In this document: positions 15,258-31,427 of the stretch, piece by piece
Layout of the letters: every line of letters begins with the position of its first letter
How positions within the stretch are numbered: the stretch's first letter is position 1
DNA from: Candidatus Methylomirabilis oxygeniifera
Lineage (GTDB): Bacteria; Methylomirabilota; Methylomirabilia; Methylomirabilales; Methylomirabilaceae
Length of the DNA stretch: 32,000 nucleotides
Direction: 5' to 3'
Assembly: GCA_000091165.1 (NCBI GenBank)
Contig: FP565575.1
Span: 120,001-152,000 of the forward strand
Made by a program: the position numbers and the translations under genes
Notes under the pieces: model-generated
Databases searched by the model: none
Told to the model about the DNA's origin: nothing
The model's input: the letters and a program-made list of their open reading frames with translations, nothing else

Positions 15258-16441
15258 GTCATTGGATCGAGTTGGATAAGCGGTACTTCATGGATACCGG
15301 TCACCGGCGTCTCGGGGTGACGCTCGTGCGCGGGGAGGGGGCGAGGGTCTGGGATGATGCCGGGAAAGAATATCTTGACTTCATTGCCGGATGGGCTGCC
15401 TGTAGCCTCGGCCACTGCCATCCTATTATCCAGGAGGCCCTTCGGGAACAGTCAAAGCGCCTTATCCTGGCGAGCCTGGATGTCTATACGATTCCCCAGA
15501 TCGAGTTGGCTGAGCTACTCATCTCCTTGAGCGGTTTGGCCAAGATCTTCTTCTGCAATAGCGGAGCAGAGGCAAACGAGGGCGCTGTTAAGCTGGCCAG
15601 GAAGCATGGGAAGTTGCACCTGAATGGCGCTTATGAGGTTATCTCGGCCCTGAAGAGCTTCCATGGTCGGACATTGGCGATGGTGGCCGCGACGGGTAAG
15701 CCGGAGTATCAGGCGCCCTTTACTCCGCTCCCTGAAGGATTCAGAAACGTCCCATACAACGATATCGCAGCCCTGCGGGCCGCTGTCGGTGAGCGGACCT
15801 GTGCAATCCTGCTGGAGCCGATCCAGGGCGAGGGCGGGGTGAACGTTCCGCCTGAGCACTATCTGAAGGAGGTCCGCACGCTCTGCGACGAGCGGGGCCT
15901 TTTGCTCATTCTGGACGAGGTCCAGACGGGCTGCGGTCGAACCGGGACCCTGTGGGCACACGAGGGTTTCGGTATCAGGCCGGACATCATGACGATAGGC
16001 AAGGGGTTGGGCGGCGGGGTTCCTATCGCTGCGTTTCTGGCCAACGAACGGGCCGCCTGTTTTGGTCCGGGAGATCACGGCTCCACCTATGGCGGCAATC
16101 CGCTCTGCTCTGCAGTCGCCGGTGCGGTGTTGCGGTTTATCATGAAGGAAGATCTGCCGGGTAACGCGGTACGGGTGGGAAGCTACTTCCGGGAGCGGCT
16201 CCTGGGCTTACAAGAGGAGTGGGATCTCGTGAAGGAGGTTCGGGGCCGCGGCCTGCTCCTGGCGATGGAGTTCACGAAGCCGATCGCGCTGGCAATGGCT
16301 CAGGCCTGCTGCGAACGGGGCCTGCTGGTGAACCCGATCCCGCCGCAGACAATCCGGTTTATGCCGCCCCTGATTATCACCCGACAGGACGTGGATCAGG
16401 CCATTATGATCCTGGATGCCGCCATCAGGCAGATCAAGTAG
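15254..16441 (+). CDS. class-III PLP aminotransferase (acetylornithine/ornithine aminotransferase-like)
   Basis: 395 aa. It has 'LDFIAGWAACSLGHCHP', 'NSGAEANEGAVKLAR', 'LILDEVQTGCGRTG' and 'TIGKGLGGG' (Schiff-base Lys). Its ATG overlaps the upstream stop (ATGA at 15254-15257). Confidence 0.9.
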   Translation: MSHWIELDKRYFMDTGHRRLGVTLVRGEGARVWDDAGKEYLDFIAGWAACSLGHCHPIIQEALREQSKRLILASLDVYTIPQIELAELLISLSGLAKIFFCNSGAEANEGAVKLARKHGKLHLNGAYEVISALKSFHGRTLAMVAATGKPEYQAPFTPLPEGFRNVPYNDIAALRAAVGERTCAILLEPIQGEGGVNVPPEHYLKEVRTLCDERGLLLILDEVQTGCGRTGTLWAHEGFGIRPDIMTIGKGLGGGVPIAAFLANERAACFGPGDHGSTYGGNPLCSAVAGAVLRFIMKEDLPGNAVRVGSYFRERLLGLQEEWDLVKEVRGRGLLLAMEFTKPIALAMAQACCERGLLVNPIPPQTIRFMPPLIITRQDVDQAIMILDAAIRQIK

Positions 16442-16520
16442 GTGGTGGCCATACCCGAGGCCGTTCGCGAAGGCAATAGGATGGGTTCTAACCTTTCCCA
16501 GAAAATCCTATTTGTCAAAT

Positions 16521-16559
16521 CCCCCCGTATCCCCCCTTTGCTAAAGGGGGGTTGGGGGG
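16521..16559. repeat. C6/G6 palindromic REP-like element
   Basis: C6-gtat-C6-tttgctaaa-G6-tt-G6 forms a nested hairpin. 'gtatcccccctttgctaaaggggggttggggggttttgt' is closely related to 20179-20218. Confidence 0.6.
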
Positions 16560-16611
16560 TTTTGTATGCCGTGGTGCCGGGTCCGGACTTTCATGGTGAT
16601 GGAGGATAGTG

Positions 16612-18237
16612 ATGACTGGCGCAGAAGCGGTTGCCGAATGCCTGAAGGCTCAAGGAGTTGAACTGGTCTTCGGGATACGCGGCCTGCACATCACGCCTGT
16701 GGCCACTGCCGCCAAACGACAAGGCATTCGATTCATTGAGGTCCGCAACGAGCAGTCCGCAGCCTTCATGGCCGATGCCTATGCCAGGGTGACCGGGCAG
16801 GTCGGGGTTGTGCTGGCCGGGACAGGCGCCGGCACTGCCGCCACGATGGTCGGCATTCAGGAAGCCTATTGCAGCTCCTCGCCGGTGCTGCTCCTTTCCA
16901 GCCAGATTGAGCGGGCGCATCTGCGCAAAGGCTGGGGCGATGTCCACGAGGTGAAGGATCAGCACGGTCTGATTTCGAATGTGGCCGAGGCGTGCTATGA
17001 CGTGACGGCACCCGCAGACATTCCTCAAAGCTTCCAGACGATCTTTTTCAGGATGGAAAATGAACGACCGCGACCCTACGGCCTCGAGGTTCCGGTGGAT
17101 GTCCTGAACGCGGAGCTTGTCGCCCCTTTCTCGTATCAGCAGGCAGTGCGTACGCCAAAGCTGCCTGATGAAACGAGGCTGGAAGACGCGGTTGAGCTGA
17201 TTGCAGGCGCGAGGCGGCCTATCATCTATGCCGGAGGCGGCTCGATCGCCTCAGGGGTAGGCCAAGCGATTGGACGACTGGCCGAGCGGCTCAACGCCCC
17301 GGTGCTTACCAGTATCAAAGGGAAAGGGGTATTCTCAGAGGCTCATGATCTATCCCTTGGCAATCTTGGGACTGAGGAGCCTGTTCGGTTGTTACTCGAA
17401 AAGGCCGATCTTGGCATCGTGGTCGGCACACGGTTCAGCAACCGATCGACCGGTAAATGGTCATTGAGGCTCCCGTCGCAATGGGTCAGGGTTGATATAG
17501 ACGAGCAACAGTTCGCCAAGACCCATCCGAGCATCCAGGGCAGCCATGTCGTTGAGCTGGTAGGCGATGCCCGCATAACCGTAGAGGCTATTCTCGAAAG
17601 GCTTGAAAAGCAGCCGTCACGTCCGCAAGGCTTTGAGCGGTCAGAGGTCATCGAGGCCAAACGACAGGTCCTGGAAAGCGTGAGAGTGAAATATCCTGCC
17701 GAGGTAAAACTGCTTGAAGATATCAGGCAGGCAATGAAACACGACGCCATTGTGGCCAACGATTCGGCCATGGCGACATACTGGGCGCGTCGGTACTTTG
17801 AGGTTCACGAGCCCAGAACATTTCTCTGGGCGATGGGGAGCGGGACAATCGGGTTCGGGCTACCGGCTGCCATCGGTGCCAAGCTCGCCAAGCCGGATTG
17901 TCAGGTTCTGGCGCTGTGCGGCGACGGCGGGTTTCTTTACTCCTGTCAGGAACTGGCGACTGCGGTCAAATATCGGGCCGCCATCGTCATCCTACTCTTT
18001 AATAACAACGCCTTTGGTGTCGTGGACTATGCCGAGCGAAAGGCGGGCCAACTGTTTGGCGACGAAGCGCTTGTAAACCCGGACTTCATCGCCTTGGCGA
18101 AGTCATTTGGCGCCGATGCGGAGCGGGTCGATTCGCTAGAGCAAATCGGTGAGGTCGTCGAGAAGGCGCTTACGCGAAATCGGCTAACGGTCATCGAGGT
18201 CCCGGTCGCCTTACGTCCCCCACCGGATCTGGCCTAA
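16612..18237 (+). CDS. thiamine-diphosphate-dependent enzyme, acetolactate-synthase-like (possible 2-oxo-acid decarboxylase)
   Basis: About 541 aa. N-terminal 'GVELVFGI.G' and 'RNEQSAAFMADAYAR' belong to the ThDP Pyr domain. 'GDGGFLYSCQELATA...LFNNNAFG' is the ThDP-binding GDG...NN motif. A GGAGGA RBS lies 5 nt before ATG 16612; the track starts at GTG 16609. Confidence 0.85.
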   Translation: MTGAEAVAECLKAQGVELVFGIRGLHITPVATAAKRQGIRFIEVRNEQSAAFMADAYARVTGQVGVVLAGTGAGTAATMVGIQEAYCSSSPVLLLSSQIERAHLRKGWGDVHEVKDQHGLISNVAEACYDVTAPADIPQSFQTIFFRMENERPRPYGLEVPVDVLNAELVAPFSYQQAVRTPKLPDETRLEDAVELIAGARRPIIYAGGGSIASGVGQAIGRLAERLNAPVLTSIKGKGVFSEAHDLSLGNLGTEEPVRLLLEKADLGIVVGTRFSNRSTGKWSLRLPSQWVRVDIDEQQFAKTHPSIQGSHVVELVGDARITVEAILERLEKQPSRPQGFERSEVIEAKRQVLESVRVKYPAEVKLLEDIRQAMKHDAIVANDSAMATYWARRYFEVHEPRTFLWAMGSGTIGFGLPAAIGAKLAKPDCQVLALCGDGGFLYSCQELATAVKYRAAIVILLFNNNAFGVVDYAERKAGQLFGDEALVNPDFIALAKSFGADAERVDSLEQIGEVVEKALTRNRLTVIEVPVALRPPPDLA

Positions 18238-20337: not shown

Positions 20338-20393
20338 GCGCGTGGCGCGTGGAATGGACGGCGAGTCGTTGTACATTCACAAAAGGAGGACCT

Positions 20394-20906
20394 ATGGTGA
20401 AAAAAGCGGCCATGTTGTCGGTTGCGGTACTGTTTGGAATGCAGGCAGGTCTTGCGATGGCGGCACCAAATCCCGATACGGGACCAGGATGCGGCTTGGG
20501 CAAGCTTGCCTGGTCCGACTACCAGAGGCAGAAGGACATCGCCCCACAGGTTATGATGGCTACGACCAACGGGACCTTTGGTAGCACTACGTTCGGTATC
20601 AGCTCTGGGACCTCCGGCTGCACCAATGACGGTAAGATCATGGGCGACAGTAAGACGGTCATGTTCGCTGAGTTGAACTTTGAGAATCTCTCTCAGGAGA
20701 TGGCCCGTGGTCAGGGGGAACACCTCGCCTCGCTGGCGACCTTGATGGGCATACCGGCCGATCAGCACGGCGCCTTTTTCGCGATGACCCAGGAACGCTA
20801 CACCTCACTGGTCGAGGCGGGCGAAACCTCTCCGGTGGCCATGGTGAAGGCGATCAATGAAGCCATTGCCGGTCATCCGGTGCTTGCCAAGATCTCTTCT
20901 CGATAA
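20394..20906 (+). CDS. DUF3015-family exported protein
   Basis: AAGGAGGA RBS followed by 'MVKKAAMLSVAVLFGMQAGLAMA/AP'. 'GPGCGLGK..W', 'TTNGTFGSTTFGISSGTSGC' and 'LSQEMARGQGEHL' fit my recollection of DUF3015 proteins. Confidence 0.7.
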   Translation: MVKKAAMLSVAVLFGMQAGLAMAAPNPDTGPGCGLGKLAWSDYQRQKDIAPQVMMATTNGTFGSTTFGISSGTSGCTNDGKIMGDSKTVMFAELNFENLSQEMARGQGEHLASLATLMGIPADQHGAFFAMTQERYTSLVEAGETSPVAMVKAINEAIAGHPVLAKISSR

Positions 20907-20910
20907 CGTT

Positions 20911-22875
20911 ATGAACGGGCTCTGGCCTTCCGGTCAGAGCCCGTTCTGTTTTTCCGTTCGGGTATTACTTCTATCGAGTTCTATCGTTTTTTCTGCCGTG
21001 TGCCTCGCGTCTCTGCCGGCTGGCGCAGAGCCCATCACCGCTGACGTATATCTGTCCGAACTGCAGGCCAAGGTGCGCGCACGTCAACTTGCGGATGACC
21101 GCGAGTGGCATCTGCTCCTTCATTATCGTCCCCGTCTTTTCGGTAGATATGAAAGCGAACAGGACGACCCCGGGTTTTTTCTCTCGTCGACAGGGAAGAC
21201 CGATCCTCAAGCGGAGCTGGATGCGACGCTGGCGCAATTCTTCTCGTCTGAGTTGGTTGGGCGATCCAGGCAGCCGGCGCAATGCGCGTTCATTGCGCGC
21301 TACCACTGGCTAAGGCGAATACTGCAATTCGACGAGTCGCGCTTGCCGAAGATGGCGTGCGAACGGTACGACCGGTGGTTTGCAGATTTTGAGGCCCGGT
21401 CTATTACGCTGATTTTTCCTTCGGCCTTTATGAATAATCCGGCATCAATGTTCGGACATACCTTGCTGCGGGTCGATCAGAAGGACCAGACCGATCAGAC
21501 GCGGATCCTTGCCTACACCATCAATTATGCGGCGGACGTACCGCCGGACGCAGGTATCGCCTATCCGATTCGCGGTATCTTCGGACTCTATAAGGGATAT
21601 TTCTCGACTATTCCGTACTACTTGAAAGTGCAGGAGTATCGCGACATCGAAGATCGTGATATCTGGGAATATCGTCTGAATCTCACTGAACGGCAAGTCG
21701 AGCGCCTCCTAATGCATGCCTGGGAATTGGGAAATGCCTCGTTCGATTACTTTTTCTTCAAAGAAAACTGCTCCTATCATCTTCTGACGCTGCTCGATTA
21801 CGCGGACCCAACGTTGCATCTTACGGATGAGTTTGTTTTCTGGACCGTCCCGGCCGACACGGTCCGACTTATTGCATCGAAGCCGGGGTTAGTCGCGGAC
21901 GTCACCTATCGTCCCGCCCGCAGTAACCTGATCCGGCGCAAACGCGAATCTCTATCGCCGGACGATCGCACACTGACTCTGCGGATTACCAAGGATCTGA
22001 GCGAGCTTACGTCATCGGCTTTTGCCCGGTTGGGTCCTCCACGCCAAGCGTTTCTACTCGATCTGGCTTCGGACCACTTACGATATCAAATCGATACAGC
22101 CGACGAGCCATCGTCTGACCTGAAAGAGCGAAACCGGGCGCTCTTGACGGCCCGCAGCCGACTCAGGATTCCATCTGAGGATTTTATGGTGGCACCGTTC
22201 GCGAAACAGCCGGAGTTGGGGCACAAGACCTCTCGCATCAGCGTGGGGGTCGGCCGGCGGAATCACGATACGTTTGAGGAAGTGACGGTACGAGCGGGTT
22301 ATCATGATCTGTTGGATCGGGAGGTCGGTTATACCCCCGATGCCCAGATCGAAATCGCGTCCATTACAGCTCGCCACTACAATCGGGCAGATCGAACGCG
22401 GATTGAACGGGCGATGTTCGCCAATATCTTATCCCTCTCGCCGGTTGACTCGGTCTCACATGCCCCATCGTGGAAAATCAATGCCGGTATGCAGACGATC
22501 AGGCACCATGGCTGTGAACTGTGCCGCAATGGGGTCATGAATGGCGGCATCGGGGGAGCCGTCGAATCTCGATTGCTGGGTCGGGAGGTCCTGTTCGCGT
22601 TGGCGGAAGCGGAAGGAAATTACAGTCGTGCATACGAAGAGCGGCATCGAGTCGGCGGCGGCGGGACGGTCGGGATACTGGCCGACCTGACCGCGCATTG
22701 GAAGCTCATGGCTACGGGGACCTATCTGAAATATGCGTTGGGTGAGACGTCCGACGACATTCGTTGGTTTATCGGATCACGCTACACACTGTCGCGAAAC
22801 TGGGCACTGCGGCTTGAGTATCATCACAGGGATCGTGACAACGACGCGACGTTCACGCTCCAGGCGTTCTTTTAG
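20911..22875 (+). CDS. DUF4105 (Lnb N-terminal-like) domain protein with a C-terminal beta-barrel-like region
   Basis: About 654 aa. 'FPSAFMNNPASMFGHTLLRVD' and 'FFFKENCSYHLL' are characteristic DUF4105 motifs. The signal-like segment is 'VLLLSSSIVFSAVCLASLPAGA/EP'. The C-terminus ends in an aromatic residue ('TFTLQAFF') as in outer-membrane proteins. The start is uncertain (ATG 20911 versus GTG 20857). Confidence 0.75.
   Translation: MNGLWPSGQSPFCFSVRVLLLSSSIVFSAVCLASLPAGAEPITADVYLSELQAKVRARQLADDREWHLLLHYRPRLFGRYESEQDDPGFFLSSTGKTDPQAELDATLAQFFSSELVGRSRQPAQCAFIARYHWLRRILQFDESRLPKMACERYDRWFADFEARSITLIFPSAFMNNPASMFGHTLLRVDQKDQTDQTRILAYTINYAADVPPDAGIAYPIRGIFGLYKGYFSTIPYYLKVQEYRDIEDRDIWEYRLNLTERQVERLLMHAWELGNASFDYFFFKENCSYHLLTLLDYADPTLHLTDEFVFWTVPADTVRLIASKPGLVADVTYRPARSNLIRRKRESLSPDDRTLTLRITKDLSELTSSAFARLGPPRQAFLLDLASDHLRYQIDTADEPSSDLKERNRALLTARSRLRIPSEDFMVAPFAKQPELGHKTSRISVGVGRRNHDTFEEVTVRAGYHDLLDREVGYTPDAQIEIASITARHYNRADRTRIERAMFANILSLSPVDSVSHAPSWKINAGMQTIRHHGCELCRNGVMNGGIGGAVESRLLGREVLFALAEAEGNYSRAYEERHRVGGGGTVGILADLTAHWKLMATGTYLKYALGETSDDIRWFIGSRYTLSRNWALRLEYHHRDRDNDATFTLQAFF
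20913..20953 (+). terminator. rho-independent terminator after the DUF3015 gene
   Basis: Stem gaacgggctctg(gcc) / (ggt)cagagcccgttc (12 perfect bp plus 3 more including a G-U pair) with a ttcc loop, followed by tgTTTTT. It begins 7 nt after the TAA at 20904-20906 and lies inside the first codons of the next predicted ORF. Confidence 0.65.
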
Positions 22876-23011: not shown

Positions 23012-23656
23012 TTACCCGGCGGCTGCTTGTATGCGAACGACGCGCGCGTCGGCCTCGAGGATATCTTCAACGCGTGCGTTCCAGAGGGAGCGGAAACGAG
23101 CGACCGAGGCGGGATCGCCATTGGAGAGCGCGGGGCCGATAGATGCCGGCAGGTCTTTGGAGGTCGGCACCACGTTCGGCTCGTAGGTGACATGGACGGT
23201 ACGCCCGGTGTCGAGGCGCTCAAAGTCGAACTCGCTGTGACGCAGATCATCGGTTCGAAAGACGAACAGATCGCGCCGGCGAAAGCGTCCGGCGCCCAGT
23301 CCTCCAAAACCGGTTTCAGGCGCGGCGCCGATAGCGACGTTGACCAGTTGTGAGATCGGCCCATATCCGAAATCGGTCGGGCCGCCGTATGCCGTCACCC
23401 GGACGTTGCCGCGAACAGCCGGCTCATCGCCGTACAACGCTTTCAGTCCGTGTCGCAGGACAAGGTATGCGCCGGCGACGGTCGGACACATATGACCCGC
23501 CGCTTTCACTAGCTCGTCAAAGCTGACCGCAATCGGCTCCCCTGGAGCGACCAGTCCCAGAAATTCGAGAAAAGGGTCGCGAACCACAATCGGTTCGGGA
23601 TGTACTCGCAACGAGAGCCCAAGTTGTTCACGTGGTGTCGCCTTCTCCGTGCTCAT
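23012..23656 (-). CDS. FmdE-like domain protein (hypothetical)
   Basis: 214 aa. 'AAGHMCPTVAGAYLVLRHGLKAL' resembles the FmdE-family 'HGH.CPG.A.G.R....AL' motif. The gene starts 19 nt downstream of the NnrS-fusion stop. Confidence 0.5.
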   Translation of the reverse strand: MSTEKATPREQLGLSLRVHPEPIVVRDPFLEFLGLVAPGEPIAVSFDELVKAAGHMCPTVAGAYLVLRHGLKALYGDEPAVRGNVRVTAYGGPTDFGYGPISQLVNVAIGAAPETGFGGLGAGRFRRRDLFVFRTDDLRHSEFDFERLDTGRTVHVTYEPNVVPTSKDLPASIGPALSNGDPASVARFRSLWNARVEDILEADARVVRIQAAAG

Positions 23657-23674
23657 AGCGGTTGTATCCTCCTT

Positions 23675-25483
23675 TTACGCTTGACGCGATATTGCCGCCA
23701 GCTTGCCCAGCTCGGCCAGCAACGGTTCAAGTTCGATACTGTGAATTCGGCACGCCTGTCGTAACGTGACGGTGGGGGCCATCGCCTCGCGCATGGCCGG
23801 GTTCTGGAGCGGACGCAAGCCGCGACTCACGAGGAGTTCGAGGGCGCCAGGGATGGTCAGCAGATCGGCGACGAGGTTATCCGCCAGTGGATCCGCCTCT
23901 GATGAGGCGGGTACTACGGTCAGCGGTCGCGCGCGTACGGTCATGAATACGTTGCCGGCAAAGGCAGCAAAGGCTCCGACGCCCAACAGACCGGAAATGG
24001 AGATATACGGCCACACGTCGGCCAGACCGGCCACCTCAACCAGCAGTTCGAGGCCGCGTGTGGCGATCGTCGCGTTGAGCAGGTAGAAGGTCGCGTCGCG
24101 CCATCCCGTGCTCCACAACGGCGTCCCGGCAAATACCGGGATGAGGCGCGCGGCAACGCCGACGATAATCTGCGTGAGAAAGCCGAGGGTGAACGCATGG
24201 CGACCGAAGTCCAGGACCAGCGTCGGCATGGGGTCACCTGTCATCGCCGACGCTGCGCTCCAGATAGGCGTGAACACCAGCGCGCCAAGCAACCATACAT
24301 AGGCGGCGACCAAAAACTTTTCGTAGCCACGATCGCCTACTTGGGTCTGATTCTCCCGCGACCCCAGGATGCCAAGTCGCCATACAAACCCGCCTACCAT
24401 CAATGACAGCGCTACCCCGGTCAGTGCGCGCGCGCCTGGAAGCACTATCCATGTGTCGATGACGGCGACGGCCACCCATGCCGATACAGCCAGTTGATAG
24501 CCGCCAAACAGGGCACTGCTCGTCTGTTGAGATAACGGCGGCAGGCCCAGGAAGACCGGCACGATGCGTAAACTCATGCCGAGAATCCACGAGCCCGCGA
24601 AGCCCCACAGCGCCGCTTCCCACACGACCGGTTGGAGCGAATCGGCGCCGGCAGTCGCCGCGACGGCCAGAGCGGCCGCAACTGTCAGCCATGCACAGCC
24701 TGCGCGAAGATAGCGCTCGAAGCCCTCCGGCGTGGGCGGGCCGGCAGCCAGGCTGCAATGGATGACCCATCCGAAACTTGCCGCCGCCGCAAGCAGCGCA
24801 AGGACGCCTATACACTGTGCCGGCCCAACGACCGGCGGTCCGACGAGCAGGCCGACGGCGACGGCCAGTACGCCGCCTGTTTGCAGCCAGAACGATGCCG
24901 AGGCCACGCCCGGTGCGGCAAGCGGCGCCCCTTTGAAGCGGGGGATCACGTGGTAGGCGACACCCATAATGAAGAGGGCGGCGAAGCCGAAGACCTGCGT
25001 GTACCCATGCGCCAGTTTGGCGACGTCCGTCGACAGTCCGCCAAGGAAATTCCAGGGAAGTGTGAGCGTGGCAAGGGTCAGCGCGCCGAGCGTACTGCCG
25101 AAGGTAAGCGCAAAGAGCAAGCTGGCGGCAAAGAACCGGACGTAGGGTGTCGGTCGGGGAGCGGCGGGCACGACGACCGCCGGCGACGCCGCCGGCGCGG
25201 GCGACGCCGCTACCTCGCAGGCGGGTGAGGCGCAAGGGCGGACAGGCTCTGTCGCAACGACGGCGGACCGTTCACGCGGCGCGCCCGCTCGGTTCAAAGC
25301 CGTCAGCAACTCGCCGAGATCGATACCGCGAACATGTGCGGCCTCAGCGAGCGTTGCGCTGCCGCCGCAGCAGGTGTCGATCCCGTGCGCATTTAAAACC
25401 CGACTGAGGGCCGGATCGGCGTGCACGACATCATCAACCGTTGTTATGCTCGTAAACTGATGTGCGGCCATTGAGCGGCTCAT
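23675..25483 (-). CDS. nnrS: NnrS-like polytopic membrane protein fused to an N-terminal ScdA_N (RIC-type) domain and a C-terminal DUF1858-like domain
   Basis: The N-terminus 'VDDVVHADPALSRVLNAHGIDTCCGGSATLAEAAHVRGIDLGELLTALN' parallels the YtfE/ScdA N-terminal domain (D.CCGG..TL..AA). After an Ala/Pro linker there are about 12 TM helices with 'AHGYTQVFGFAALFIMGVAYHVIPRF' (NnrS-like H....FGF). The C-terminus is 'LLTIPGALELLVSRGL...TLRQACRIHSIELEPLLAEL'. Confidence 0.7.
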   Translation of the reverse strand: MSRSMAAHQFTSITTVDDVVHADPALSRVLNAHGIDTCCGGSATLAEAAHVRGIDLGELLTALNRAGAPRERSAVVATEPVRPCASPACEVAASPAPAASPAVVVPAAPRPTPYVRFFAASLLFALTFGSTLGALTLATLTLPWNFLGGLSTDVAKLAHGYTQVFGFAALFIMGVAYHVIPRFKGAPLAAPGVASASFWLQTGGVLAVAVGLLVGPPVVGPAQCIGVLALLAAAASFGWVIHCSLAAGPPTPEGFERYLRAGCAWLTVAAALAVAATAGADSLQPVVWEAALWGFAGSWILGMSLRIVPVFLGLPPLSQQTSSALFGGYQLAVSAWVAVAVIDTWIVLPGARALTGVALSLMVGGFVWRLGILGSRENQTQVGDRGYEKFLVAAYVWLLGALVFTPIWSAASAMTGDPMPTLVLDFGRHAFTLGFLTQIIVGVAARLIPVFAGTPLWSTGWRDATFYLLNATIATRGLELLVEVAGLADVWPYISISGLLGVGAFAAFAGNVFMTVRARPLTVVPASSEADPLADNLVADLLTIPGALELLVSRGLRPLQNPAMREAMAPTVTLRQACRIHSIELEPLLAELGKLAAISRQA

Positions 25484-25558
25484 CGTGCAGAATCTGTCCA
25501 GTCAGATCAGGACGTTGGGGCGCAAAGAGGCAACACGCTTCTATCCTACCTATCAAAA

Positions 25559-25587
25559 AATATAGCTGAAGCGGCAAGGGAGGTCAA
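25559..25587 (-). promoter_or_regulatory. sigma-70-type promoter candidate upstream of the NnrS-fusion gene
   Basis: On the minus strand: TTGACC (25587-25582), 17-nt spacer, TATATT (25564-25559). It lies in the 122-nt gap after the cytochrome gene. Confidence 0.4.
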
Positions 25588-25605
25588 CGGCAAACGTAGA
25601 GATGA

Positions 25606-26070
25606 TCAGCGCGCTTCGTCGAGCCGGTATACCGCATGGCAGGCCACGCAGTTGCCGGTCAGCGTTGCAAGCCCACGGAGGATGTCGGCTTGGCTGCCGC
25701 CTGCCTGAATCTGGTCGGCCAGCATATCGAACCCCCGATGGGTGTGCATTGCCAACTCCAGGAACTGCCGAGGAAGCCGTGTCTTGATATGCGGATTGAC
25801 GTCGGCGGCTTTCCCGATGCCCGACGCGCGGGCTGCCTTTTCCGCCGCAGGGAGATCGCCGGTCGCTACGCCCTGGATGATCCCGCTTACAGACGCGAGC
25901 ATGACGCGCATCTCCGTCAGCATCATATCTCGCTGCGCATGGGCAAGGACCACGCGTTGCCGCGTATCGACCGACGATTCGTGGGGTTCAACGGCAGCCG
26001 AGTAACCGAGGCACCCAAGGACGATGGCCCCCACTACACCCGCACAGATTCCGAGCCGCGTTAGTCTCAT
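25606..26070 (-). CDS. cytochrome c'-like (class II, four-helix-bundle) cytochrome
   Basis: About 154 aa from ATG 26070 (GAGGAG RBS). It has a signal peptide, predicted helical content and a single CxxCH ('CVACHAVYR') only about 10 residues from the C-terminus, the hallmark of class II c-type cytochromes. Confidence 0.7.
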   Translation of the reverse strand: MRLTRLGICAGVVGAIVLGCLGYSAAVEPHESSVDTRQRVVLAHAQRDMMLTEMRVMLASVSGIIQGVATGDLPAAEKAARASGIGKAADVNPHIKTRLPRQFLELAMHTHRGFDMLADQIQAGGSQADILRGLATLTGNCVACHAVYRLDEAR

Positions 26071-26133
26071 TCTTCTCCTCGTCTCCTTTCTCTGGAAAAT
26101 AGCATTCAGCACTCAGCGCTCCTCAACCCACTG

Positions 26134-27594
26134 CTATTCAGGATGTTTTTCGGATCGAAGATGAGCCATGGACATTGTCCAGCGACTTTCTGAGACGTGT
26201 TGAATTGGCGCATTTGCCGTTTGCCACAGATTGACCGCCAGACACGCGACGGCCCCCCACCCGAGTATCCCTGAGATCGCAAAGATCGTTTGAACAAGCA
26301 GATCGACTGCCGGCAGTCGATCGGATAACCAACCTGGTGAAAGTAACGGGACAACACGACAGACCGCCGCCGCACTGCCTAGCCAAAAGGTGGCATCGAC
26401 TAATGTGGCACTGGCTACTCGTTTTCTCCGTATGAAGCCGGGCAGCATCCGAACCGACGCGCCGAAAATGAGGTGGGTGATAAAGCCAAGGAGATACATA
26501 TGGCGGATGGCGTCCGCTGCGATCGGAATCGAATAGCCGAGCAGGACGGTCGCGCCGCCAAGGAGTTCCATGAACGCGCCAAGAACAAGCCACGTATAGG
26601 CGGCGTAGACCGGGCGTTCGAATCGGCCAAACTCGCCATAATCCGGTAAGCCCGGTCGCGTGGGCGGGCGGTCCGGCCCGGTGTCAAGAAAGCGCGCATG
26701 ACGCCCTAAGGGTCGGCGGCGGGTCAGCAGATCAAGTTGCCACACGAACCAGAGGATGATACCCCCCTTCAGCAGCGTTCCCAGCGCGATGATCAATCTG
26801 ATAACGCCAGGCGCGAACCCCGCCATGGGAGGCGCCGCGGGGACCAGTTGCAGCACGACGGACAGCAGATACGCACATCCGATCCTGTACACCGGCCAAT
26901 CAGGAGCCGGTAGAGCCAGATACAGCGGAAAGAGGCGAACCGATAGCGCAAAGGCGACAGGCAACAGGACAAGACTGATGAAGGCGTGAACAGCAAATTC
27001 ATTCCAACCGGAATTTACGGCGACATTGCCGGTCAGTGCCATATGAAGCAGCAAGAACAGGTTGAGACACGCGTAGAGGATCCAGCCGGCCGCCATCATG
27101 CCAAAAAACGGCTTGACCGCACCGATCGCCGGAAGCTTTCTGGCTTGATTACTGCCGCGCATGGTCCCAATCAGGAGCGACACGTACAGGACGATTGCCC
27201 CTGCTTCCAGCAGTCCGGAGGCGCCTACCAGCCAACTGAGAGGAACAAACAGCGGGCTCTCTTCAAAGGACGCCAGAACCGTACCGCCCACCGCCCGAAA
27301 CAGCAGCCCCGGCACCATCAGCCAAAGAATGTAGTTCATTCGTTCCGGATGAGGCAGGGGGAAGCTGGCCAGTCGTGGAATGAAATGCAGGCTGATGCCC
27401 ATAATGAATACGCCTGCCCAGCCGACGAGTTGCAGATGTCCGTGCGTTTGGATCAGCGCGTAGAAACCCTGCCCTGCGGGAAGGCCGTAGGCGATGACGA
27501 CGGCGAGGTATGCGCCGAACGCAAAGCCTCCGGCAATCGCTGTGGTCAACGATGTCCAGATAAAGCCGGGGTGGAACTCGGCATAGCGCTTCAC
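26134..27594 (-). CDS. nnrS: NnrS-like polytopic membrane protein (paralogue)
   Basis: 486 aa, about 12 TM helices. 'THGHLQLVGWAGVFIMGISLHFIPRL' is clearly paralogous to the motif in 23675-25483. GTG start at 27594. Confidence 0.7.
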   Translation of the reverse strand: MKRYAEFHPGFIWTSLTTAIAGGFAFGAYLAVVIAYGLPAGQGFYALIQTHGHLQLVGWAGVFIMGISLHFIPRLASFPLPHPERMNYILWLMVPGLLFRAVGGTVLASFEESPLFVPLSWLVGASGLLEAGAIVLYVSLLIGTMRGSNQARKLPAIGAVKPFFGMMAAGWILYACLNLFLLLHMALTGNVAVNSGWNEFAVHAFISLVLLPVAFALSVRLFPLYLALPAPDWPVYRIGCAYLLSVVLQLVPAAPPMAGFAPGVIRLIIALGTLLKGGIILWFVWQLDLLTRRRPLGRHARFLDTGPDRPPTRPGLPDYGEFGRFERPVYAAYTWLVLGAFMELLGGATVLLGYSIPIAADAIRHMYLLGFITHLIFGASVRMLPGFIRRKRVASATLVDATFWLGSAAAVCRVVPLLSPGWLSDRLPAVDLLVQTIFAISGILGWGAVACLAVNLWQTANAPIQHVSESRWTMSMAHLRSEKHPE

Positions 27595-27735
27595 TTTGAG
27601 GCTTACCTTACTGGTGGGTGGCGATCGAATAATGAGGAAAGGTAGGCTTATATCGTCGCATGAGGAAGCCTGGGGTGGTCGGCACAGACGGTCACCATAG
27701 CCCGCATAGTGCGACCACCCCGTTTACCATGATCC

Positions 27736-28335
27736 TTACAGTTTCTGTGCCTCGCTGGCCAGGTAGCTCGCGACACCGTCGGCGTCAGGCCGCATCCCCT
27801 TGGCCCCATGTGTCCAACCAGCAGGGCAGACCTCTCCATGCGTCTCAGTAAACTGGAGCGCATCCACCATGCGAAGCATCTCATCCACATTACGTCCGAG
27901 TGGCAGGTTGTTGACGACCTGGTGTTGCACGATGCCGCATTTGTCGATCAGGAAGGAGCCGCGCAGGGTCACTCCGCCAGGCAGCAGGACGTCGTATTCT
28001 CTGGCGATCGCCTTTGTCAGGTCGGCCACCAGTGGATAGCCTACCGGGCCGATGCCGCCCTTGTTGACAGCGGTGCCGCGCCATGCGCAATGGGTGAAAT
28101 GCGAATCGACGGAGCACCCGATCACCTGGACGCCGCGCTTCTCGAACTCGGCGACACGATGATCAAAGGCGATAATCTCTGAAGGACAGACGAAGGTAAA
28201 ATCGAGGGGATAGAAGAAGAGCACAACATACTTACCCCAGTAGTCGGATAACTTGAAATTGTTGTTAAAGCTGCCGTCCGCCATCACGGCGGTTGCAGTA
28301 AAATCAGGTGCGGACTTGCCTACGAGTACGCTCAT
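27736..28335 (-). CDS. typical 2-Cys peroxiredoxin (AhpC/Tsa family)
   Basis: 199 aa from ATG 28335 (GGAGGAG RBS). The peroxidatic Cys lies in 'FYPLDFTFVCPSE' and the resolving Cys in 'HGEVCPAGW'. The long Arg/Ala-rich N-terminal extension in the track ORF overlaps the upstream gene and is discarded. Confidence 0.92.
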   Translation of the reverse strand: MSVLVGKSAPDFTATAVMADGSFNNNFKLSDYWGKYVVLFFYPLDFTFVCPSEIIAFDHRVAEFEKRGVQVIGCSVDSHFTHCAWRGTAVNKGGIGPVGYPLVADLTKAIAREYDVLLPGGVTLRGSFLIDKCGIVQHQVVNNLPLGRNVDEMLRMVDALQFTETHGEVCPAGWTHGAKGMRPDADGVASYLASEAQKL

Positions 28336-28385
28336 TGCTCCTCCATGTGTGTGGGTTGTGATTTCGCGGATTGAACTACCGGCTT

Positions 28386-28706
28386 CTACTTGTGCTGTCG
28401 GTCGTGCTTCTGACGGGCGATCCGGCGGCTCTGCCTGTCTTGCGTGCGCTCGATTCTGGCGCGCTCCCGCTTCGTCACCGTCCCGTCGGCGAGCGCCCGG
28501 TCTTCCATCTGCTGCACGTGCGCCTGGCCCTTCTCGAGCCGCGCGGCCTCCCGCTCGTTCAACTGGCCGGACGCTACCCCCTGATCGATCCGGCGTTCCT
28601 GATTCTCCTGCCGCTGGTCGATGCGTGGCGTGCTTTGCGCCTGCGTCAGCGCTGGCCACGTGATCGCAGCCAGCGCCACAACCGCTAGAAACTTCACCGC
28701 CTTCAT
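28386..28706 (-). CDS. small secreted charged helical protein (hypothetical)
   Basis: Signal peptide 'AVVALAAITWPALTQA/QS', then a Gln/Arg/Glu-rich sequence with internal repeats ('RIDQRQENQERRIDQGVASGQLNEREAARLEKGQ' / 'DGTVTKRERARIERTQDRQSRRIARQKHDRQ'). This resembles a recurring small periplasmic protein family of unknown function. Confidence 0.6.
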   Translation of the reverse strand: MKAVKFLAVVALAAITWPALTQAQSTPRIDQRQENQERRIDQGVASGQLNEREAARLEKGQAHVQQMEDRALADGTVTKRERARIERTQDRQSRRIARQKHDRQHK

Positions 28707-28953
28707 CGGTTCCTCCCTTTTTCTCAGTTCACGTGAGTGTCTCGTACCGGATTCGACGCCACACTCCTGTCACGGTCAGTCGTATCAAGGAGGCGCATCT
28801 CGGCCTGTATAGTGAGGGAACGTACCAGAAGCGGTAGGAGAGGTCAAGGGAAACATGGGACGTAAGGGCGTGCTGCGGTGTGCTCTTCATTGATCAGACT
28901 GGAGGGGGAATCTTCGTGATGTCTCGGTTGTTGCGAGAGCCTCAATGATTATA

Positions 28954-28992
28954 CCGTAGCGGGTTGGGGTAGTATGCCCCAACCCGCTACGG
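28954..28992 (-). terminator. perfect 16-bp hairpin 3' of the GlcG-like gene
   Basis: ccgtagcgggttgggg (28954-28969) / ccccaacccgctacgg (28977-28992) with a 7-nt loop, 10 nt after the stop at 29002. There is no clean U-run on either strand, so function as an intrinsic terminator is uncertain. Confidence 0.45.
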
Positions 28993-29001: not shown

Positions 29002-29811
29002 TCAGTTGCCCTCGATGGAGTTGCCATCATTGGAATCGGTGGGATTGTTGAGGCAGGTAGGGTGATTGAAGGCGCCGGGGAATGCGCCGGCTGCCTCCCC
29101 CTGAATGAGGGCATCGTTACTCGCGGAGGAGACCCCTCCGGGAAGATTTGCGACATGAAAAGCTCCGCCCGCCACCGCCTCGCGGACCTTCCAGGCCACG
29201 ACATGGTCGGTGCAGGAGGTATCGCCGGAGACGCCGATCGCGCCGACCTTTACGTGGCTGCTGTTGTATAGGGCGAGACCGCCACCGAATACGTTGATGC
29301 CGCCGACCCGCTCCTTTTCGAGCGGATCCTTGGTGGTGCCGAACTTGCCGGAGTCTCCATCATAGGCGGCTGTCGGATCGACCGGATTGCTGTGTTGGAG
29401 CCCGTACAGGCTCCCGCCCGGTTGCACTGCCTTGTGCAGATTAGCGGTAGACAAGGCGAGCAGGCCGGTACTGAAGGCGTTCGCCGTATTGGCCTTCTGG
29501 GCCGAGATGACGCGACTGCCCAGCCAGATATCGCGCACGGCGCTCTGGGAACCGGTTAACGAGTTAACGACCTCACATACCTTTCCGCTGTCATCCACCA
29601 GAGTAAGCCACATAGGGAAGTCGAGACCGCCGCTAGGGGCTCCATCAGCGTTCCCATTACCTGACGGAACAACAGCCCGCAAGGTGGTCTGCAGTGTGTC
29701 ATGAGTCAGCCCTTGGCTGGCCAATTGCGAGCAGGTATCCGCCATTGCCGGTACCGCCGCTACCATCATCCCGCCCAATACCATTGCCCCGACAAATCGA
29801 TTCCGTTTCAT
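29002..29811 (-). CDS. secreted GlcG/HbpS-like (DUF336, heme-binding/degrading-like) protein
   Basis: 269 aa from ATG 29811 (GAGGAGGG RBS). It has the signal peptide 'GAMVLGGMMVAAVPAMA/DT', plus 'VISAQKANTANAFS' and 'GGGLALYNSSHVKVGAIGVSGDTSCTDHVVAWK', the GlcG-family core. It also has N- and C-terminal extensions. Confidence 0.65.
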   Translation of the reverse strand: MKRNRFVGAMVLGGMMVAAVPAMADTCSQLASQGLTHDTLQTTLRAVVPSGNGNADGAPSGGLDFPMWLTLVDDSGKVCEVVNSLTGSQSAVRDIWLGSRVISAQKANTANAFSTGLLALSTANLHKAVQPGGSLYGLQHSNPVDPTAAYDGDSGKFGTTKDPLEKERVGGINVFGGGLALYNSSHVKVGAIGVSGDTSCTDHVVAWKVREAVAGGAFHVANLPGGVSSASNDALIQGEAAGAFPGAFNHPTCLNNPTDSNDGNSIEGN

Positions 29812-30449: not shown

Positions 30450-31427
30450 ATGATGCCGAAAACAAGTCATCGAAGCTGCCGATGCCTCGTAATCGCGCTT
30501 CTGTGGTGGTTCGCTCATGTTTCGTCGGCCGCTGCGGCCGGACCGATGGCCTATGTGGCGAATGAAAAATCCGATGATGTGTCGGTCATCGACACTTCAA
30601 CGAATACAGTGATCCGCACGATCGCGGTGGGTAAGCGGCCGAGAGGCGTGGCGATCTCGCCGGACCGACGTCACGTGTACATTGCCAACGGCAATTCCGA
30701 TGACATTAGTATCATCGATGCCGAGGTTGGGAAGGTCGTGGAAACATGGCCTGCAGGGGTCGACCCCGAGGGGGTGGCGCTGAGTCCTGACGGGACCCGT
30801 CTGTACGCAGTGAACGAGAATGGCGGAACGGTCACGGTGATCAACACCAAGACCGGCACAGTGATTGCCACCATCGAGGTCCAGGTAGAGCCGGAGTCGA
30901 TTGCCGTCAGTCCCGATGGACAGGTTGCCTACGTCTCCAACGAAACATCGAATACGATTTCGGTTATCGATACGGCGACCCTCAAGGTACTAACGGCTAT
31001 CCCGGTTGCGAAGAACCCGCGTGGGATCGCCTTCAGCCCTGACGGCAAGTATGCCTACGTGACCAGCGAGCAGGTCGAGCCCGGCGTGCTGTCGGTGATC
31101 GAGGTGGCTCGCCATAAGGTGATCAAGAGCATCCCGGTCGGCGAACGGCCGGTTGGAGTGGTGGTGTCACGGGACGGTCGCACCCTTTATGTGGCGCACG
31201 GCCGGAGTAATGCCGTCTATGTCGTCGATGCCCGCACCTTGACCGTCACCAAACAGATCCCGGTGGGCCAGCGGGCCTGGTACCTGGCCTTTACGCCGGA
31301 CGAGCAACGTCTCTATGTCGCCTGTGGTCGCAGCGACGCGGTGTCGGTGATTGATGTCGCAGCCGGGAAAGTCATCGCCACGGTTCCGGTCGGCAAGATA
31401 CCGTTTGGCGTCGCCATTCCACAGTAA
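30450..31427 (+). CDS. YVTN-family seven-bladed beta-propeller protein, exported
   Basis: Signal peptide, then seven repeats of about 42 aa of the form 'YV.N..S..VSVID..T..V...I.VG..P.G.A.SPDG'. A GGGAGAGCGAGG RBS region precedes the ATG. Confidence 0.85.
   Translation: MMPKTSHRSCRCLVIALLWWFAHVSSAAAAGPMAYVANEKSDDVSVIDTSTNTVIRTIAVGKRPRGVAISPDRRHVYIANGNSDDISIIDAEVGKVVETWPAGVDPEGVALSPDGTRLYAVNENGGTVTVINTKTGTVIATIEVQVEPESIAVSPDGQVAYVSNETSNTISVIDTATLKVLTAIPVAKNPRGIAFSPDGKYAYVTSEQVEPGVLSVIEVARHKVIKSIPVGERPVGVVVSRDGRTLYVAHGRSNAVYVVDARTLTVTKQIPVGQRAWYLAFTPDEQRLYVACGRSDAVSVIDVAAGKVIATVPVGKIPFGVAIPQ

Follow-up and report, generated by a model that had tools for sequence, protein, structure and literature searches.

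A membrane-anchored RIC-like NnrS protein as the candidate core of a proposed nitrosative and oxidative defence locus in Methylomirabilis

Introduction

Methylomirabilis is a methane oxidiser whose metabolism depends on nitrite. NnrS proteins are credited with shielding iron-dependent metabolism from NO, and the RIC/YtfE proteins with Fe-S repair. NnrS (PF05940, COG3213), represented by the proteins of Rhodobacter sphaeroides and Vibrio cholerae, is a membrane protein containing haem and copper, and its role in NO resistance is auxiliary (PMC3345576). The di-iron repair proteins (RIC, YtfE, ScdA, DnrN) are soluble, two-domain proteins. Three further families enter the comparison: subunit I of the haem-copper oxidases (CcoN, NorB, CoxA), the FmdE family (PF02663; PDB 2glz, 2gvi and 3d00) and the class II cytochromes c, four-helix bundles of the c', c556 and b562 types.

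In this work we analyze a window of 32,000 nucleotides from Candidatus Methylomirabilis oxygeniifera, which encodes relatives of all these families in a single stretch. A preliminary description had read six co-directional genes on the minus strand as a dedicated NO-handling module; we found no publication discussing this six-gene Methylomirabilis locus in the literature searched. The features of the locus, in window coordinates, are:

g1, 28386-28706, minus strand: small secreted, highly charged protein, 106 aa
g2, 27736-28335, minus strand: typical 2-Cys peroxiredoxin, cytoplasmic, 199 aa
g3, 26134-27594, minus strand: 12-helix membrane protein with the haem-copper oxidase subunit I fold, divergent member of the NnrS superfamily, 486 aa
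g4, 25606-26070, minus strand: exported class II (four-helix-bundle type) c-type cytochrome, 154 aa
g5, 23675-25483, minus strand: fusion of ScdA_N, an NnrS-type 12-helix membrane domain and DUF1858, 602 aa
g5 ScdA_N domain, 25286..25441, minus strand: residues 15-66, DTCCGG motif
g5 NnrS-type membrane domain, 23945..25132, minus strand: residues 118-513
g5 DUF1858 domain, 23720..23869, minus strand: residues 539-588
g6, 23012-23656, minus strand: cytoplasmic FmdE-fold protein with an invariant G-H-x-C-P motif, 214 aa

All six open reading frames were confirmed, separated by gaps of 50 bp (g1-g2), 141 bp (g2-g3), 63 bp (g3-g4), 122 bp (g4-g5) and 18 bp (g5-g6). The preliminary gene list was thus right in its members and off in two labels, NnrS for g3 and cytochrome c' for g4. 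The notion of a dedicated NO-handling module is supported in part, by the context of g5-g6 and g4 relatives in other organisms and by a motif shared within the genus, and fails on the gene order and on the NnrS score of g3.

Results and discussion

The proposal that g5 is an NnrS-like protein with RIC-type domains stands firmly for the latter: ScdA_N (60.3 bits, cut-off 32.5, with a TIGR03652 RIC N-terminal match) and DUF1858 (51.6 bits, cut-off 32.2) lie well above their Pfam thresholds. The NnrS match itself is sub-threshold in Pfam (24.2 bits, cut-off 28), covering profile positions 11-364 of 371. Relatives of g5 exceed this cut-off (31, 36.1 and 48.1 bits), some carry the NCBI name NnrS family protein, and 24 of 25 family members match the profile over its full length (17 of 25 match COX1). 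Like NnrS, members of the family are membrane proteins of several helices, with histidines conserved on helix 2 and on a late helix (invariant H159, H178 and H429 in g5), and they occur in connection with denitrification and in NO-responsive settings. g5 differs from NnrS in its cytoplasmic ScdA_N and DUF1858 domains and its obligate FmdE-fold partner, an architecture for which we found no description in the literature searched. The ScdA_N domain and its CC-G motif are shared with the RIC-type proteins, but here an oxidase-fold membrane protein anchors them.

The partner, g6, had been called FmdE-like, and at the level of fold this holds: its AF2 model (pLDDT 95) retrieves 2glz, 2gvi and 3d00 as its sole significant Foldseek matches. 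The Pfam search with g6 gave nothing at E<0.01 (FmdE 14.5 bits, below cut-off), and 31 of 45 relatives do match FmdE. The G-H-x-C-P with which the long helix opens is common to g6 and the family, from which g6 departs in lying outside a formylmethanofuran dehydrogenase operon, in a C-terminal helical extension and in having no zinc-ribbon domain. Only one His of g6 is invariant, and only one Cys nearly so.

The two genes form a pair well beyond this genus. They are adjacent in all 20 metagenome loci long enough to test, as well as in L004 and L006, and natural g5::g6 fusions occur in Binatia (P0162, with 72% identity, and P0333). In loci outside Methylomirabilis with enough downstream DNA, a gene for a hemerythrin-type di-iron protein follows g6, two genes downstream of g5 (10/11), and in P0324 and P0414 it is fused to the g6 domain. 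Compared with RIC, hemerythrin is a separate gene and an FmdE-fold protein is interposed; since the window has no hemerythrin gene, the parallel with RIC is only partial in Methylomirabilis. Three loci (L004, L006, L096) place g5-g6-hemerythrin directly beside nosZ, nosD, nosL and ApbE genes, many other g5-g6 contigs being too short for such linkage to show, and in other organisms genes for PAS-containing sigma-54 activators and for an ECF sigma factor stand immediately upstream of g5-g6. Together with the NnrS/ScdA_N and nor-like neighbours of g4 homologues described below, these surroundings support a tie of g5-g6 and g4 to nitrogen-oxide biology. As a functional unit it is g5-g6 that is conserved, perhaps together with g4, and not the set of six genes.

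On balance we lean towards the view that the locus is a lineage-specific nitrosative and oxidative defence assembly with a membrane-anchored RIC-like NnrS system at its core. Separately evolving defence modules would have been assembled in Methylomirabilis under a common promoter-associated element. The conserved core, module A, would be g5-g6, with g4 probably serving it. In g5 the NnrS-type domain has the 12-helix fold of oxidase subunit I without its binuclear centre. The conserved histidines of helices 2 and 10 may hold a single b-type haem between them, close to the periplasmic face, and this haem could trade electrons or NO with the exported g4. On the cytoplasmic side, ScdA_N and DUF1858 would act with g6 through its His-x-Cys motif, joined in other organisms by the di-iron hemerythrin. 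The putative task of module A is to block or undo nitrosylation of iron centres, so that it would merge the activities attributed to NnrS and to RIC/YtfE; regulation of the locus would presumably depend on NO. The g5-g6 pair, conserved and sometimes fused, offers a testable handle on NO protection by the poorly understood NnrS proteins.

The regulators upstream of g5-g6 in other organisms also lend themselves to a different reading, in which the NnrS-type domains would use their haem to sense NO, O2 or redox state, and ScdA_N, DUF1858 and the FmdE-fold protein would pass the signal on to regulators as output or adaptor modules, with no part in the repair of iron centres. The higher conservation of g6 (67-73% identity, against 56-59% for g5) is what a tightly docking partner would be expected to show, and an invariant cytoplasmic loop of g3 (residues 293-326, long and of low model confidence) could be a docking site. 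Against it, none of the six proteins matches a DNA-binding or kinase domain in Pfam or NCBIfam, a di-iron hemerythrin is the partner that recurs, repair proteins carry ScdA_N as their N-domain, and the fusions go to hemerythrin and not to signalling domains. We consider a sensor unlikely.

The preliminary label of g4, a c'-type cytochrome, is supportable as far as class II cytochrome c; cytochrome c' is not established. The length of 154 aa counts from the ATG used in homologues, themselves 154 aa and some named cytochrome c556, and the frame may extend to a GTG at 26112. In size, export signal and a CxxCH (CVACH) four residues from the C-terminal end of its last helix, g4 resembles the class II cytochromes, yet it falls below the Pfam threshold of Cytochrom_C_2 (19.2 bits, cut-off 26.5), and PDB profiles return weak matches to b562 and c' only. 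Besides CxxCH, the family keeps an invariant first-helix E-M-R-x-M-L and His111; these residues suggest that g4 may be a six-coordinate electron carrier rather than a five-coordinate, NO-binding c'. One g4 homologue overlaps the start of an NnrS gene, with ScdA_N following; another is succeeded by ScdA_N, DUF2249 and an oxidase-like gene; a third lies upstream of a nor-like cluster of cytochrome c, COX1 and CbbQ. A link to NnrS or oxidase genes was absent from three of the six contexts examined.

In g3, described beforehand as NnrS-like, Pfam finds no NnrS score at all: its sole match is COX1, at exactly the gathering score (34.8 bits) and over the N-terminal half. The kinship survives at the family level, where g3 is a full-length homologue of the g5 NnrS-type domain (hhalign probability 100%, E 4e-40, 406 columns) and 8 of 25 members match NnrS, against 25 of 25 for COX1. 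The AF2 model (pTM 0.84; predicted topology N-in/C-in) has an oxidase or NOR subunit I as each of its top 26 Foldseek matches, led by cbb3 CcoN (TM 0.66-0.69, E 8e-9) and followed by bo3, aa3, ba3, cNOR and qNOR; across the superfamily, TM-scores span 0.6-0.69. We conclude that g3 is an oxidase-fold relative of NnrS that does not score as NnrS. H51, H53 and H365 are invariant in its family and H70 nearly so, and in both g3 and g5 the conserved histidines are confined to predicted helices 2 and 10, near the periplasmic ends, where oxidase subunit I also has histidines near its outer face; their residue-level matching to the low-spin haem ligands of oxidases rests on helix numbering and manual alignment.

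Such a fold raises the alternative that g3 and/or g5, fed by g4, is an NO-converting enzyme that has gone unrecognised within the haem-copper superfamily. It would act as a reductase or assist in NO dismutation, and would directly serve an NO-centred energy metabolism rather than stress defence. A c-type cytochrome gene adjoins g3, one g3 homologue (P0077) carries a fused cytochrome c domain, in L009 the gene directly upstream of g3 encodes a type II NADH dehydrogenase, and g4 homologues adjoin oxidase and nor-like clusters. However, helices 6 and 7 bear no conserved histidines in either family, helix 10 has a single invariant one, and the CuB/FeB site and the high-spin haem ligand are therefore absent; to our knowledge, all oxidases and NORs need both. 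The g3 and g5 proteins thus differ from subunit I in having no binuclear catalytic centre, and the locus has no gene for subunit II or III or a NorC-type partner. The g3 family moreover stands alone in many phyla without nitrite-dependent methanotrophy, and NnrS has been published as an auxiliary and not as the main NO remover (PMC3345576). A catalytic role thus appears quite improbable, and within the defence assembly that we favour g3 would be module B, a stand-alone paralogue in the oxidase-fold family of the g5 domain, widespread in uncultured phyla and recruited beside module A in Methylomirabilis.

Conservation of the NnrS-cytochrome-NnrS order, which the preliminary description had made a point on which it could be refuted, was found only inside the genus Methylomirabilis. 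Within 8 kb of g3 homologues from other phyla, none of 78 loci has g2, g4, g5 or g6, so the juxtaposition of g3 with g4, g5 and g6 in the window could be incidental. Within the genus itself, some species lack g1, at least one has DUF488 and NDH-2 genes inserted between the peroxiredoxin and g3, and synteny reaches plainly unrelated flanking genes. Two copies of a promoter-like motif accompany the genes:

Shared motif, copy 1, 28828..28847, minus strand: TTGACCTCTCCTACCGCTTC, 122-141 nt upstream of the g1 ATG
Shared motif, copy 2, 25559..25587, minus strand: TTGACC-17 nt-TATATT, 85-104 nt upstream of the g5 ATG

Copy 1 is an exact match to TTGACCTC-N5-CCGCTTC, which occurs exactly only twice in the 32-kb window, both times within the locus. 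Copy 2 matches the sigma-70 consensus at 10/12 positions, and its block is invariant in seven Methylomirabilis loci, with a spacer of 122 to about 450 bp. The motif precedes g1 in M. lanthanidiphila, lies between g2 and g3/DUF488 in other species, and in related species precedes g5 and the g3-containing unit. A search returned 17 sense-strand intergenic matches in Methylomirabilis loci and three weak ones in the remaining roughly 1.2 Mb. Its presence upstream of both g1 and g5 argues for co-regulation of the locus within Methylomirabilis, as judged from sequence, and it could also be simply a strong housekeeping-type promoter. At the locus, no FNR/Dnr/NnrR-type box was found.

These observations bear on whether the six genes are mere neighbours in one genus, with no common function and g5-g6 as the only unit. 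The order lost outside Methylomirabilis, the variable presence of g1, the genes intruding between g2 and g3 and the synteny of unrelated flanks all point that way. Yet the unusual motif marks both transcription units and travels with the g3-containing unit upon rearrangement, and each component has independent N-oxide or redox-stress associations elsewhere; we judge pure coincidence very unlikely. Least probable of all is that g5-g6 and hemerythrin form an accessory system that supplies N-oxide reductases of the periplasm or membrane, NosZ for instance, with their metal cofactors or protects these cofactors; in Methylomirabilis its client would be a different one. The adjoining nos genes, the FmdE-family proteins that metalloenzyme operons encode according to the family description and one g6 relative fused to a Cys-rich DGC domain would suit this reading. 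Against it, the window has no nos genes, many g5-g6 contigs are too short for nos linkage to show, and the two conserved residues of g6 are little for a metal chaperone.

The remaining genes of the favoured defence assembly, g2 with g1, would form module C, in which an ordinary 2-Cys peroxiredoxin clears peroxide or peroxynitrite. The small secreted charged protein and the peroxiredoxin had both been named correctly. For g1 the signal peptide is obvious, scans of Pfam and NCBIfam gave no family match above threshold, and as a query it was found only in the M. lanthanidiphila loci L001-L003, with no match in L009, L092 or L093. For g2 the AhpC-TSA match is well above the Pfam cut-off (123 bits, 8e-36) and is joined by 1-cysPrx_C (45 bits, 9e-12); the NCBIfam model peroxiredoxin C scores 269 bits, under its cut-off of 301, and inspection of the sequence finds the cysteines of FVCP and EVCP. 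The DUF488 and NDH-2 genes sit between the peroxiredoxin and g3 in L009, and the separation of the two in L010 resembles that gap.

Gene content and conservation of the locus

The six co-directional minus-strand open reading frames of the preliminary description are present at window positions 23012-28706. The most 5′ of them, g1, encodes a small secreted charged protein, followed by g2 (2-Cys peroxiredoxin), g3 (12-helix membrane protein), g4 (class II cytochrome c), g5 (fusion of ScdA_N, an NnrS-type membrane domain and DUF1858) and g6 (FmdE-fold protein with a G-H-x-C-P motif). Of the domain assignments proposed for these genes, AhpC-TSA, ScdA_N and DUF1858 were recovered by HMM scans, but three fell below their cut-offs: NnrS (PF05940), matched over the whole profile by the membrane domain of g5 with 24.2 bits (E 2.6e-5; gathering threshold 28 bits), Cytochrom_C_2, matched by the C-terminal helix of g4 with 19.2 bits (cut-off 26.5), and FmdE (PF02663), matched by g6 with 14.5 bits and by one of its homologs with 19.7 bits (gathering threshold 22.9 bits). 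No significant family match was obtained for g1 or g6 in these scans. The g2 product, with an AhpC-TSA domain (123 bits), a C-terminal domain (45 bits) and the peroxidatic FVCP and resolving EVCP cysteines in its translation, is by sequence a typical 2-Cys peroxiredoxin (AhpC/Prx1).

The full arrangement recurs, together with unrelated flanking genes, in M. lanthanidiphila and other Methylomirabilis contigs. A scan for the g3 family with one genome per species returned 80 loci, 78 of them in other NC10 clades, KSB1, Poribacteria, Latescibacterota, Gemmatimonadota, Entotheonella, Calditrichota and other groups. Homologs of g2, g4, g5 and g6 were found within 8 kb of g3 in none of these 78 loci outside the genus, and clustering of their neighbors yielded no gene that was universally conserved or common across phyla. 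By the criterion set in the preliminary description, the NnrS-cytochrome-NnrS order is not conserved. The set is confined to Methylomirabilis and varies even there: g1 goes undetected in several loci, genes for a DUF488 protein and a type II NADH dehydrogenase (NDH-2) separate the peroxiredoxin from g3 in a closely related Methylomirabilis MAG (locus L009, positions 3543-5236), and locus L010 has a comparably large gap there. The NDH-2 insertion may hint at a quinone-level electron supply to g3. Horizontal transfer was considered, but at 58-65% GC the locus exceeds the average of the window only a little, as expected of membrane proteins rich in Ala, Gly and Leu.

Oxidase fold of the g3 and g5 membrane domains

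Like NnrS, g3 and g5 are polytopic, with about 12 helices and conserved histidines, but g5 scores below the NnrS threshold and g3 has no match to NnrS at E<0.01 in the Pfam scan; the sole Pfam match of g3 is COX1, at 34.8 bits exactly the cut-off. Relatives of g5 do rise above the NnrS cut-off (31, 36.1 and 48.1 bits). When 25 members of each family were scanned singly, COX1 was matched by 25/25 members of the g3 family and 17/25 of the g5 family, and NnrS (E≤0.01) by 8/25 and 24/25, respectively. On these profile scores, both families stand between NnrS and the catalytic subunit of heme-copper oxidases. The closest named relatives of both proteins belong to M. oxyfera and NC10 MAGs. BLASTP links g3 to g5 solely through a short HG-x-x-Q...FIMG...H-x-IPR motif; alignment of the two families with hhalign returns full-length homology (probability 100%, E 4e-40, 406 columns aligned).

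The AlphaFold model of g3 contains 12 transmembrane helices (pTM 0.84), and its top 26 Foldseek matches in the PDB are all subunit I of cbb3, bo3, aa3, ba3, cNOR or qNOR (best E 8e-9, TM-scores 0.66-0.69), the match following this oxidase/NOR set having a probability of 0.18. Searches of PDB sequences with the sequences and family profiles of g3, g4 and g6 gave nothing significant, leaving fold comparison alone as informative. The positive-inside rule predicts that both termini of g3 are cytoplasmic, as the predicted cytoplasmic loops hold 18 Lys/Arg residues and the outer ones 1. Helices 8 and 9 are joined by a cytoplasmic loop of 34 residues (293-326), modeled with very low confidence, which contains seven invariant residues (T312, R313, D318, E321, F322, G323 and F325) and could be a partner-docking segment.

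Canonical oxidase subunit I carries six histidines (one on helix 2, one on helix 6, two on helix 7 and two on helix 10) that form the low-spin heme and binuclear sites, with the axial ligands of the low-spin heme coming from helices 2 and 10 and the CuB/FeB ligands residing on helices 6 and 7. Although g3 shares the 12-helix fold of this subunit, it does not keep the six histidines. Invariant in its family are H51 and H53 on helix 2 and H365 on helix 10, with H70 near-invariant, and the invariant H159, H178 and H429 of the g5 family are the equivalents of H51, H70 and H365. Helices 6 and 7 of both proteins lack any conserved histidine and the second helix-10 histidine (H374 in g3) is variable, which argues for an oxidase fold without a binuclear center. 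H51/H53 and H365 lie on helices 2 and 10 close to their periplasmic ends. We infer that g3 and g5 would each bind one heme close to the outer face. Comparison of the g3 family with a single sequence of bovine COX1 by hhalign was uninformative, so the mapping of these histidines onto oxidase ligands is itself inferred. That comparison paired g3 residues 377-406 (helices 10-11) with COX1 residues 76-105 (helices 2-3), a pairing that probably stems from the three-fold pseudo-symmetry within the oxidase fold and not from true equivalence.

The conserved g5-g6 unit

In g5 the membrane domain is flanked by ScdA_N (60.3 bits; cut-off 32.5) and DUF1858 (51.6 bits). The N-terminal ScdA_N is common to RIC/YtfE, but the C-terminal di-iron domain that RIC/YtfE carries in the same protein is absent from g5, and domain scans detected no hemerythrin-like di-iron domain in g5 or in the rest of the window locus. 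Of the 11 loci outside Methylomirabilis whose sequence extends far enough past g6, 10 have a hemerythrin gene after it, and fusions between hemerythrin and g6 relatives occur in both orders (P0324, P0414).

The association of g5 with g6 is consistent: g6 lies directly after g5 in all 20 metagenome loci retrieved with g6 as query and in two distant loci found via g5, and it is the better conserved of the two (67-73% identity versus 56-59% when the same organisms are compared). In Candidatus Binatia the two form one polypeptide, P0162, whose residues 622-826 (of 829 aa) are 72% identical to g6, and a further protein, P0333, has the same ScdA_N...DUF1858-FmdE architecture. Loci with g5-g6 adjoin nosZ/nosD/nosL clusters in three instances (L004, L006 and L096), and also sigma-54 activators or an ECF sigma factor.

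The FmdE-like label given to g6, below threshold at the level of the Pfam profile, holds at the level of fold. A structure model computed from homologs gathered in the representative search (pLDDT 95) has significant Foldseek matches only to 2glz, 2gvi and 3d00, all FmdE-like structural-genomics entries, and places g6 in the FmdE superfamily, with a predicted FmdE alpha/beta fold. The family is larger than first apparent, with 332 clusters at 50% identity, and 31 of 45 diverse relatives match Pfam FmdE (E≤0.01). G54, H55, R82 and a GF-x-G loop are among the positions that are invariant in the family; C57 is nearly so. The fold is shared with FmdE but the gene context is not: no formylmethanofuran dehydrogenase genes neighbor g6, its neighbors being NnrS-type, hemerythrin and nos genes. 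Since g6 has no export signal and ScdA_N of g5 is N-terminal to the first membrane helix, all soluble parts of the unit are placed in the cytoplasm.

The class II cytochrome

The 154-residue product of g4 has a hydrophobic N-terminus and carries CVACH at residues 141-145, conforming to the class II pattern of a helical protein of about 130 residues with an export signal and a single CxxCH near its C-terminus. A few of its homologs match PF01322. The homologs are 154 aa long, starting at an internal ATG, and several are labeled cytochrome c556 by JGI. The family conserves His111, the C-terminal CxxCH and, in its first helix, E-M-R-x-M-L, with Met54 and Met57 invariant, and its profile weakly matches b562-type and c′ four-helix cytochromes in the PDB. 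These motifs and matches make class II a reasonable assignment, within which the c′ type and a His/Met carrier are both candidates. Cytochrome c′ has a five-coordinate high-spin heme with a vacant hydrophobic distal site. Six-coordination of g4 is possible given the invariant Met54/Met57 and His111, and from the methionines we favor a His/Met electron carrier over an NO-binding five-coordinate c′.

Six contexts of g4 homologs were examined outside the genus. In one, the homolog extends into the 5′ end of a bona fide NnrS gene, after which come genes for ScdA_N and DUF2249; in another it precedes genes for ScdA_N, DUF2249 and an oxidase-like membrane protein; in a third it stands before genes for cytochrome c, COX1 and CbbQ, a group that resembles a nor cluster. 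The other three showed no NnrS or oxidase link. Together with a g3 homolog (P0077) that carries a fused cytochrome c domain, the linked contexts indicate that the partnership of c-type cytochromes with oxidase-fold proteins is recurrent, though not universal. A large conserved cluster seen at L109 1-8907 and on the JGI contig encoding P0288 includes two COX1-like genes, UbiA, SCO1, a cytochrome b/ferredoxin/FlpD fusion, an uncharacterized protein of 184-205 aa and a g4-type cytochrome, followed by an NnrS or oxidase-like gene with ScdA_N and DUF2249; its make-up suggests an unusual set of respiratory or NO-related genes.

A promoter-associated motif shared by two transcription units

NsrR/NnrR/Dnr-type sites had been suggested as a check on the locus, and known NnrS genes are expressed under the control of an NO-responsive regulator (NnrR, NorR or NsrR). 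Boxes of the FNR/Dnr/NnrR type (TTGAT-N4-ATCAA, ≤2 mismatches) were not above chance, with 11 matches against 9.2 expected and none in the intergenic regions of the locus, and a generic promoter and terminator scan also gave counts at chance level. Phylogenetic footprinting of the g4-g5 spacer in seven Methylomirabilis loci revealed an invariant block, ACGTT..CC-TTGACC-17 nt-TATATT, kept though spacer length spans 122 to about 450 bp and coinciding with the only strong sigma-70-like site of the promoter scan. Its extended core, TTGACCTC-N5-CCGCTTC, has exactly two copies in the 32-kb window:

25559-25587, minus strand: copy upstream of g5, given as TTGACC-17 nt-TATATT
28828-28847, minus strand: copy upstream of g1

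Allowing ≤2 substitutions, 17 of the 20 matches in 1.38 Mb of fetched DNA fall in Methylomirabilis loci, all 17 on the sense strand, upstream of g5 and of g1 or the g3-containing unit (g3, or DUF488-NDH2-g3); in L009 the motif precedes the DUF488-NDH2 insertion. This non-palindromic, promoter-associated motif provides the best evidence that the locus is handled as one regulon within the genus, and it also points to g5-g6 as a transcription unit of its own.

Two hairpins were noted, and Rfam returned nothing in the window:

27660-27722, minus strand: hairpin in the g2-g3 spacer, after the peroxiredoxin stop codon, with arms GGGGTGGTCG/CGACCACCCC
28956-28990, minus strand: hairpin with a perfect 14-bp stem, GTAGCGGGTTGGGG...CCCCAACCCGCTAC, after the stop codon of the HbpS-like gene, followed by a TATAAT hexamer

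The g2-g3 spacer is poorly conserved and the hairpin arms recur in other Methylomirabilis loci; the stability of this hairpin does not differ significantly from that of shuffled sequence (z -1.4), and it may serve as an attenuator or as a structure at the end of an mRNA. The second hairpin is not conserved in M. lanthanidiphila.

Proposed mechanism and significance

On the reading we favor, the locus is a lineage-specific regulon that brings several modules together. One would comprise the cytoplasmic peroxiredoxin g2 and its variable secreted partner g1, another the stand-alone oxidase-fold protein of the NnrS superfamily, g3, and a third the g5-g6 unit as a conserved membrane-anchored RIC-like system, probably served by g4, whose usual hemerythrin is missing from the window. 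RIC is credited with a repair role, and its function is still debated. In Methylomirabilis, NO is an obligatory intermediate of methane oxidation. In the mechanism we propose, the outer-face heme would contact a periplasmic cytochrome, and the cytoplasmic ScdA_N, DUF1858 and FmdE domains, with hemerythrin where present, would act on nitrosylated iron centers. The proposal draws on domain content, fusions and gene context, and on published work that gives NnrS an auxiliary role in resistance to NO (PMC3345576); NnrS from R. sphaeroides contains heme and copper (PMC3345576).

Taken jointly, these elements would make NnrS-type proteins, with their heme-copper-oxidase fold and no binuclear center, the membrane subunit of a new complex of periplasmic class II cytochrome, NnrS domain, cytoplasmic ScdA_N/DUF1858, FmdE-fold protein and di-iron hemerythrin. 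Such a complex would couple the NO or redox state of periplasm and membrane to de-nitrosylation or repair of cytoplasmic iron centers, and would have been duplicated and rewired under one dedicated regulator in Methylomirabilis, which lives on internally generated NO. We offer this joint reading speculatively and consider it unlikely. The main rivals of the modular regulon reading are a catalytic, NO-converting role, a role as sensor, a role in metallo-enzyme maturation, and plain coincidence. The catalytic role is opposed by the missing binuclear center.

To our knowledge, NnrS has been known for more than 20 years as an NO-induced heme/copper membrane protein with an undefined mechanism. The genes themselves are already in the published genome; within the literature that could be searched, we found no paper on the locus, on an oxidase fold of NnrS-type proteins or on the triad of ScdA_N-NnrS-DUF1858, FmdE and hemerythrin. 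The analysis indicates that NnrS-type proteins have the fold of an oxidase/NO reductase catalytic subunit from which the catalytic site is gone, and that one branch, physically joined to RIC-type domains, always occurs with an FmdE-fold protein and usually with hemerythrin, at times in one polypeptide. A vague NO-response protein would thereby become a concrete, testable multi-protein hypothesis, and an FmdE-like family of unknown function would gain its first biological context. How Methylomirabilis spares its own iron enzymes from NO is a question relevant both to greenhouse-gas cycling and to applications in wastewater.

Neighborhood of the locus

Further features of the window are as follows:

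804-4277, plus strand: PQQ-dependent dehydrogenase (613 aa), family-3 solute-binding protein and mono-heme cytochrome c, in a row
12958-18237, plus strand: apparent operon of aldehyde dehydrogenase, DDAH/arginine-deiminase-like amidinotransferase-fold protein, class III aminotransferase and thiamine-diphosphate enzyme
20349-22875, plus strand: overlapping pair of a DUF3015 protein and a large Lnb_N/DUF7843/DUF7840 protein, convergent with g6
29002-29811, minus strand: HbpS-like (DUF336/GlcG) secreted protein, encoded immediately upstream of and co-directional with the locus, a position kept in the genus
30450-31427, plus strand: secreted YncE-like seven-bladed beta-propeller, divergent from the HbpS-like gene

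By sequence, the gene order at 804-4277 is the one expected of a methylotroph xoxF/mxaF-type methanol dehydrogenase cluster. The apparent operon at 12958-18237 also adjoins the locus in M. lanthanidiphila, and the propeller at 30450-31427 also matches the model of the cytochrome d1 heme-domain propeller, with 75 bits.
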